Below are positions 45-63,658 of a DNA stretch of 64,000 bases, piece by piece. The notes below the pieces were generated by a model, which was not told where the DNA came from, did not search any database, and worked only from the letters and a program-made list of their open reading frames with translations. Made by a program: the position numbers and the translations under genes. Position 1 is the first letter of the stretch, and every line of letters starts with the position of its first letter. The DNA is from Octopus vulgaris. Lineage: Eukaryota. Where the stretch lies: positions 21,080,001 through 21,144,000 of the forward strand of contig OX597838.1 in the NCBI GenBank assembly GCA_951406725.2. Direction: 5' to 3'.

Positions 45-126
45 TTGCAGCAAACTATAATTGTTATAACAATGACCAACAGAATGAAAAAGGCCACAAC
101 AGGAACACCAACCAGCAACAATAAAT
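45..126 (-). CDS. Exon 31: transmembrane helix (N)[26 protein letters not shown]
   Basis: Polypyrimidine tract plus CAG acceptor at 127-129, GTAAGT donor; 82 nt, phase 1 in and phase 2 out; 24 uncharged mostly hydrophobic residues followed by CC. Confidence 0.9.

Positions 127-63658: not shown

Follow-up and report, generated by a model that had tools for sequence, protein, structure and literature searches.

A phosphatase-free octopus gene of the lectin-EGF receptor family with a predicted 57-module stalk and a tandem-YxxM tail

The window, meaning the whole 64,000-nucleotide stretch of octopus DNA analysed here (G000:C25:21080001-21144000), carries a long run of near-uniform EGF-type exons that ends in a transmembrane (TM) exon. 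An earlier note on this DNA described the run as part of a single-pass receptor with a strongly expanded module array and proposed that its ectodomain could be varied by splicing or by copy number, in the manner of Dscam. What kind of receptor does the array belong to, and does its length vary between transcripts or between genes?

The exon array and the extent of the gene

Thirty array exons lie on the minus strand of the window from position 63658 to position 1060, of which 28 are 138 nt long and two are 144 nt long (11095-10952 and 1203-1060). Every one is in phase 1-1, is free of stops, encodes eight cysteines, and has an AG acceptor and a GT donor (GC at 55126 and 53042). A strict exon pattern finds 29 of these exons, and the 30th (17944-17807) was found by other searches of the window. 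The same pattern gave no match on the plus strand or in 20 base shuffles. The twelve 138-nt exons of modules 28–39 (window 38406..63658, minus strand) have their 5' ends at 63658, 60323, 57241, 56147, 55263, 54524, 53179, 51276, 44668, 43038, 40715, and 38543, and each encodes the spacing C-x8-C-x3-C-x-C-x5-C-x6-C-x4-C-x9-C. They are followed on the same strand by the seven 138-nt exons of modules 40–46 (window 22938..35852; 5' ends at 35852, 34209, 32533, 28040, 27194, 25216, and 23075) and by the eleven exons of modules 47–57 (window 1060..19248), nine of 138 nt and two of 144 nt, with 5' ends at 19248, 17944, 15902, 14001, 12968, 11095, 9678, 5883, 5177, 2701, and 1203. A 307-bp unit, purine-rich on the plus strand, is repeated 12.3 times at 99% identity in the intron that separates module 35 from module 36 (window 47281-51045).

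Of 104 open phase-1 exon candidates along the array, the TM exon (window 45..126, minus strand; 82 nt, phase 1 to 2) alone is TM-like. Its helix ends on the inner side in a Cys-Cys pair (window 46-54), a possible palmitoylation site. Introns at window 63659..64000 and 1..44 lead out of the window on the minus strand, the first towards the exons farther upstream and the second towards the tail exons. The thirty symmetric exons and the TM exon were thus exactly as first described, and the suspicion that the array continued past the window edge was borne out. Modules 1–27 lie upstream (G000:C25:21145865-21219567, minus strand), which brings the stalk to 57 modules ahead of a single TM exon. We counted 61 pattern matches less three microsatellite false positives and one head exon. 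GC donors occur at three of the 57 stalk exons, and module 5 has an additional, frameshifted copy of 143 nt with intact splice sites at G000:C25:21208076-21208218 (minus strand).

Farther upstream, eight predicted exons (G000:C25:21223683-21254026, minus strand) encode a head with the predicted order of signal peptide, Cys module, small beta-type domain, EGF, F-type-lectin-like domain, and linker EGF. Downstream of the TM exon, a Pro-rich exon (21078257-21078372), a 443-nt exon (21075696-21076138), and a stop exon (21071776-21071885) lie on the minus strand of the same contig, and all three are joined in an RNA contig. A further untranslated exon after the stop exon was not located. Splice sites are canonical at all 69 exons, which form one frame across 182 kb, with the first stop after 3,289 aa; the predicted protein has its TM helix at residue 3,047 and a tail of 219 aa. 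The predicted head-to-tail continuity of the gene rests on this genomic frame. Reverse-transcriptase-like fragments occur beyond the stop exon (G000:C25:21069179-21068601) and in a stalk intron (21219188-21218928).

Could such an array be an assembly artefact, or several genes taken for one? The array contains two long introns (14.6 and 9.5 kb), and the full-length protein was absent from database searches. We found no full-length orthologue with the array profile among proteins of 84–2,000 aa, with the tail among proteins of 259–2,000 aa (0 of 737 candidates), or among all representatives searched, and an amphioxus array used as bait gave 15 matches among proteins of 2,085–6,635 aa, none of them from octopus, although each of these blanks is weak evidence. 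Against an artefact, the region has no N, the 57 stalk exons are all distinct in DNA (56 in protein), and their intron flanks share sequence in just 14 and 21 of 1,596 pairs, which together make assembly duplication unlikely. Nor was a second TM exon found, or any lectin or phosphatase (PTP) exon inside the array. We therefore regard an artefact or a fusion of separate genes as extremely improbable.

Family placement and paralogs

Comparisons of the head place this gene among molluscan lectin-EGF receptors. The array module profile has its best match in the Octopus sinensis lectin-EGF receptor phosphatase P0001. P0001, P0035, and P0061 can be matched collinearly to head exons 2, 5, 6, 7, and 8 (E 5e-4 to 1e-17; exon 2 matches the first module of the phosphatase family at about 1e-9) and weakly to exons 3 and 4. 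Exon 6 contains a galactose-binding-like domain (PF22633, 29.6 bits against a cut-off of 27.8), the lectin-like domain is 38%–41% identical to P0001, P0035, and P0061, and all six PDB matches of the lectin-like exon are F-type lectin domains. F-type lectins are defined by a fucose triad, HX24RXDX4[RK], and a cation motif, h2DGx (PMC5712786). The head has the cation motif and lacks the triad, with its His replaced by Arg, and the triad is also absent from all five relatives tested. A single-sequence fold of P0035 had a pLDDT of 35, and the fold search with P0035 was empty at E 0.001.

The gene therefore did not prove to be the MEGF10/Draper orthologue that the earlier note had in mind, since its lectin-type head is the one seen in the octopus lectin-EGF phosphatases. 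Members of the PEAR1/MEGF10/Draper group carry 15–17 EGF repeats, an N-terminal EMI domain, and NPxY and ITAM-like tail motifs. PEAR1/JEDI, MEGF10/11, Draper, and CED-1 resemble the octopus gene in having an EGF-repeat ectodomain, a single TM helix, and a tail with Tyr motifs, and modules matched in this group are about 35%–49% identical to the first query module. The octopus gene differs from them in its lectin-type head, in a stalk three to four times longer, and in the absence of NPxY and ITAM motifs. An EMI domain was not matched on head exons 2–3, and the MEGF10 control, P0056, likewise gave no match.

Among the closest parallels are the MEGF/GBD receptor tyrosine phosphatases (RPTPs), whose features of multiple EGF domains and one TM helix are present here. 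These proteins (SudRes1, PMC12297450; Octopus P0001, P0003, and P0061) share with our gene the exon-for-exon head layout, the lectin-type domain, one eight-Cys EGF per phase 1-1 exon, the single TM helix, and an EGF number that varies between paralogs. A genomic region tied to schistosome resistance in Biomphalaria sudanica contains three such phosphatases, and a resistant snail has lost EGF domains (PMC12297450). They contain PTP domains, whereas this gene has none. Ten non-octopus queries gave no PTP match in the 250 kb downstream, and the identical queries matched the phosphatase gene on C14 at five places. Because the RNA contig runs from the TM exon to a stop after 219 aa and PTP matches are missing downstream, we conclude that the gene belongs to a known molluscan lectin-EGF receptor family as a phosphatase-free paralog and is not an RPTP. 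What is new is the 57-module stalk and the tandem-YxxM tail. A literature search, thin on subscription journals, returned nothing published about this gene or about any molluscan receptor with tandem YxxM motifs, and the main text of the octopus brain atlas (PMC9712504) mentions neither MEGF nor draper.

Stalk length differs widely between octopus paralogs. Among 20 candidates scored, the lectin exon had 17 other genome matches, 10 of them on C14, where exons outside the stalk match the Octopus protein P0061 at 52%–98%. The number of stalk exons is about 0–1 in the paralogs on C9 and C20, 25 in a paralog on C14, and 57 here. The C14 paralog is cut off by an assembly gap; its 25 exons are in phase 1-1, with AG in 24. 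This array appears young and mostly alternates exons of 129 and 135 nt, and about ten lectin-EGF paralogs lie on both strands between 73.3 and 75.1 Mb of C14 (L047-L066). The C20 paralog (G000:C20:71150001-71180000, L073-L075) has the same head, one stalk exon, and a TM-like exon, with no phosphatase match within that interval. In the C9 paralog, a phosphatase is present and a stalk was not detected; in the C12 stretch, we found no stalk, TM, or PTP exons. The proposal that ectodomain length could vary by copy number thus held between paralogs (about 1, 25, and 57 modules), and its counterpart, variation by splicing, found no support in the modules covered by RNA contigs.

The longest array among 269 relatives examined has 42 modules, compared with 57 here, and the 64 relatives in the databases that combine a lectin-like motif with a single TM helix have at most 17. 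The whole family devotes one phase 1-1 exon to each module, so this architecture is not special to the 57-module gene. Ostrea edulis P0124 (42 modules) and the Saccostrea cucullata P0126 cluster (20–24 modules) combine a lectin-type head with a long array, as here, but no TM helix was found in their models; the O. edulis array consists of near-identical repeats, and the Saccostrea cluster has annotated module-skipping isoforms. Modules of the amphioxus proteins P0046, P0069, P0024, P0085, and P0122 are 69%–73% identical to the stalk exons, in unrelated domain contexts, a level above that of octopus paralog modules (at most 65%).

Inclusion of stalk exons in RNA and selection on the array

RNA contigs argue against combinatorial use of the membrane-near stalk exons. 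The contigs come from three studies, one filed under another organism label (organism B), from runs presumed to be RNA. They are assembled contigs rather than raw or long reads and so describe the dominant form, with rare variants dropped, and repeated 30-mers break them across modules 1–38. Over window 1-19400, X3 (3,158 nt) and X9 (4,135 nt, organism B) each consist of one contig. Each lists 7 of the 11 exons there, and a 552-nt gap at the same coverage depth corresponds to the other four. X1 is similar and is split over two contigs, with the break at module 52/53, where an unspliced piece branches off. All 11 exons of modules 47–57 are therefore included in order in X1, X3, and X9, and the exon joins in the two short contigs of X4 are also in order. 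The remaining lengths of X3 and X9 (2,659 and 2,664 nt) exceed by 25 and 30 nt the 2,634 nt of 19 included exons, which points to inclusion of modules 39–46 as well. Both contigs end at the first repeated 30-mer of an all-included mRNA, common to modules 16 and 17, so their breaks can be explained without skipping. The position of these ends also hints that the upstream exons of modules 16 and 17 are transcribed.

The alternative is that symmetric exons are skipped combinatorially to give cell- or tissue-specific stalks, the Dscam-like route suggested earlier. The stalk would permit it, as all 57 exons are skippable in frame, three have GC donors, and the frameshifted copy of module 5, with its intact splice sites, must already be skipped. 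In Saccostrea cucullata, all 14 annotated isoforms compared are shorter than the annotated X1 isoform by 47–197 aa, or one to four modules, although these figures cover 15 of the 24 cluster members and near-identical repeats can mislead annotation. RNA evidence in octopus is, moreover, confined to modules 39–57 of 57. However, each of the 11 tested exons was included in order in X1, X3, and X9, and the break in X1 coincides with the unspliced piece. Modules 5–34 have a mean DNA identity of 77%–80% within blocks and no diversifying signal, so skipping there would alter length more than specificity. Arthropod Dscam1 is comparable as a receptor gene in which many duplicated exons are arrayed, but it picks one exon per cluster, whereas the tested octopus exons are all used in series. 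Overall, we consider combinatorial skipping quite improbable.

Selection on the modules also fails to fit diversification. Pairwise omega among modules is 0.16–0.19, and a tree-based estimate is 0.25, with none of 45 codons above neutral, although the tree value derives from parsimony counts and can be biased by saturation and gene conversion. Among the exon differences from organism B listed in 40 of the 120 rows of that comparison, 14 of 18 are silent. Judged from these substitution patterns, the array copies are under purifying selection. Modules 6, 9, 11, and 12 are 90%–96% identical but have flanks with little in common, a pattern suggestive of conversion limited to exons. The array on C14 presents a different picture from that of this single gene on another chromosome, whose array is older (omega 0.25 versus 0.9–1.2). 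The C14 value derives from few changes, and several codons there are above neutral (uncorrected). We see the C14 array as a better candidate for diversifying recognition than the 57-module gene.

Charge is distributed unevenly along the stalk. Modules 1–43 have a net charge of +82 and modules 44–57 of -16, a trend to be read with the caution that duplicated exons are not independent. The latter group is richer in N-glycan sites, and modules 1–23 have none. The mean charge of +1.16 per module is reached by 10 of 206 relatives.

The cytoplasmic tail and proposed function

The tail carries a tandem tyrosine repeat rather than the ITAM/NPxY motifs or PTP domains that the earlier note had proposed to look for. 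Contig X9 joins the last module, TM exon, Pro-rich exon, 443-nt exon, and stop exon; X1 and X3 terminate within the 443-nt exon, and X8 contains the tail in short pieces only. The 443-nt exon encodes an 11-residue unit eight times in tandem plus one earlier copy. Tyr is present in six of the nine units and missing from three, a sign of partial decay. As a whole, the tail contains seven YxxM motifs, compared with a maximum of four among 201 relatives with a predicted TM helix, and no NPxY or ITAM. Met occupies position +3 after seven of the nine tail tyrosines, and Leu, Ile, or Val after none. The repeat exon is single-copy in a genome search; the repeat has no database relatives, and the Atlas gave no usable match. 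In organism B, the length of this exon is unchanged, and the 13 listed tail differences leave every Tyr in place, one of them creating a further YxxM, in a comparison where repeats can misalign. The genome also contains a gene for p85 with its iSH2 region. The same part of that domain matches twice, about 900 bases apart (G000:C23:13985995-13987029), possibly as duplicated alternative exons.

The reading we prefer, to which we give an even chance, is that a fixed, long cationic stalk carries a lectin-like head and that the tandem YxxM tail likely recruits PI3K when the receptor is clustered, as in PEAR1. With a module length of 2.5–3 nm for EGF repeats, we infer that the stalk is a long, semi-rigid rod of roughly 150 nm, which would carry the head past the cell coat. 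The basic outer stalk may bind polyanions multivalently, as the ectodomains of SCARF1 and PEAR1 do. Clustering would allow a Src-family kinase to phosphorylate the tail repeats, p85 could bind pairs of phosphorylated repeats, and PI3K/Akt signalling would lead to adhesion or engulfment. PEAR1 is activated by sulfated polysaccharides and has one YxxM, which the tandem SH2 domains of PI3K cross-link (PMC12557594), compared with seven such motifs in one octopus chain. The stalk itself may have grown by exon duplication with occasional exon-limited conversion, its length varying between paralogs and not between transcripts.

The basic outer stalk would also suit a scavenger or cargo receptor, in which a fixed cationic stalk takes up polyanionic cargo and clathrin adaptors read the Tyr motifs as YxxPhi sorting signals. 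YxxPhi is the consensus for endocytosis and sorting, and YEVM is compatible with it. The closest solved structure to the module profile is SCARF1 (SREC-I; PDB 8hna, E 1.9e-11), a long, curved EGF rod that binds polyanions, including modified LDL and teichoic acid, by charge through basic residues and arginines (PMC11563577). SCARF1 differs in lacking a lectin head and in having far fewer modules and another tail. Against this reading, Met at +3 in seven of nine tail tyrosines, with no Leu, Ile, or Val, appears to suit p85 over a generic sorting signal, and the tail has no NPxY. We hold this reading to be possible though unlikely.

Alternatively, the protein could be a structural tether or spacer, for example in cell-matrix or skin adhesion, with a low-complexity tail repeat that plays no role in signalling. 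Octopus has a tandem EGF protein with a mechanical use, octovafibrin, which has 29 three-disulfide EGF repeats (PMC10336842), and the lost lectin triad and the lack of database relatives of the tail repeat would fit such a role. Conservation of the tail exon in organism B, in length and in all tyrosines, argues against it, as does the finding that 35 of the 64 relatives that combine a lectin-like motif with a single TM helix are PTP-free, most of those with Tyr-bearing tails. We judge a purely structural role very improbable.

A further proposal, decidedly unlikely in our view, is a paired-receptor system in octopus. The lectin-EGF sister genes carry phosphatases on stalks of various lengths, and this gene would be their activating partner, with a PI3K-recruiting repeat on its 57 modules. 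Stalk length would then set reach and contact exclusion, and skipping of outer modules could tune that reach. If this is true, stalk length decides which receptor reaches its target and which is excluded from contact.

The findings on this gene do not amount to a new system of somatic diversification. In it, the ectodomain type of relatives that lie in a snail locus associated with schistosome resistance (PMC12297450) is joined to the opposite kind of output, on a stalk longer than in any of the 269 relatives examined. Under the PI3K-recruiting reading that we prefer, it becomes a concrete cephalopod candidate for a receptor of the activating kind, serving recognition or engulfment, and its paralog series is suited to asking how ectodomain length affects signalling.
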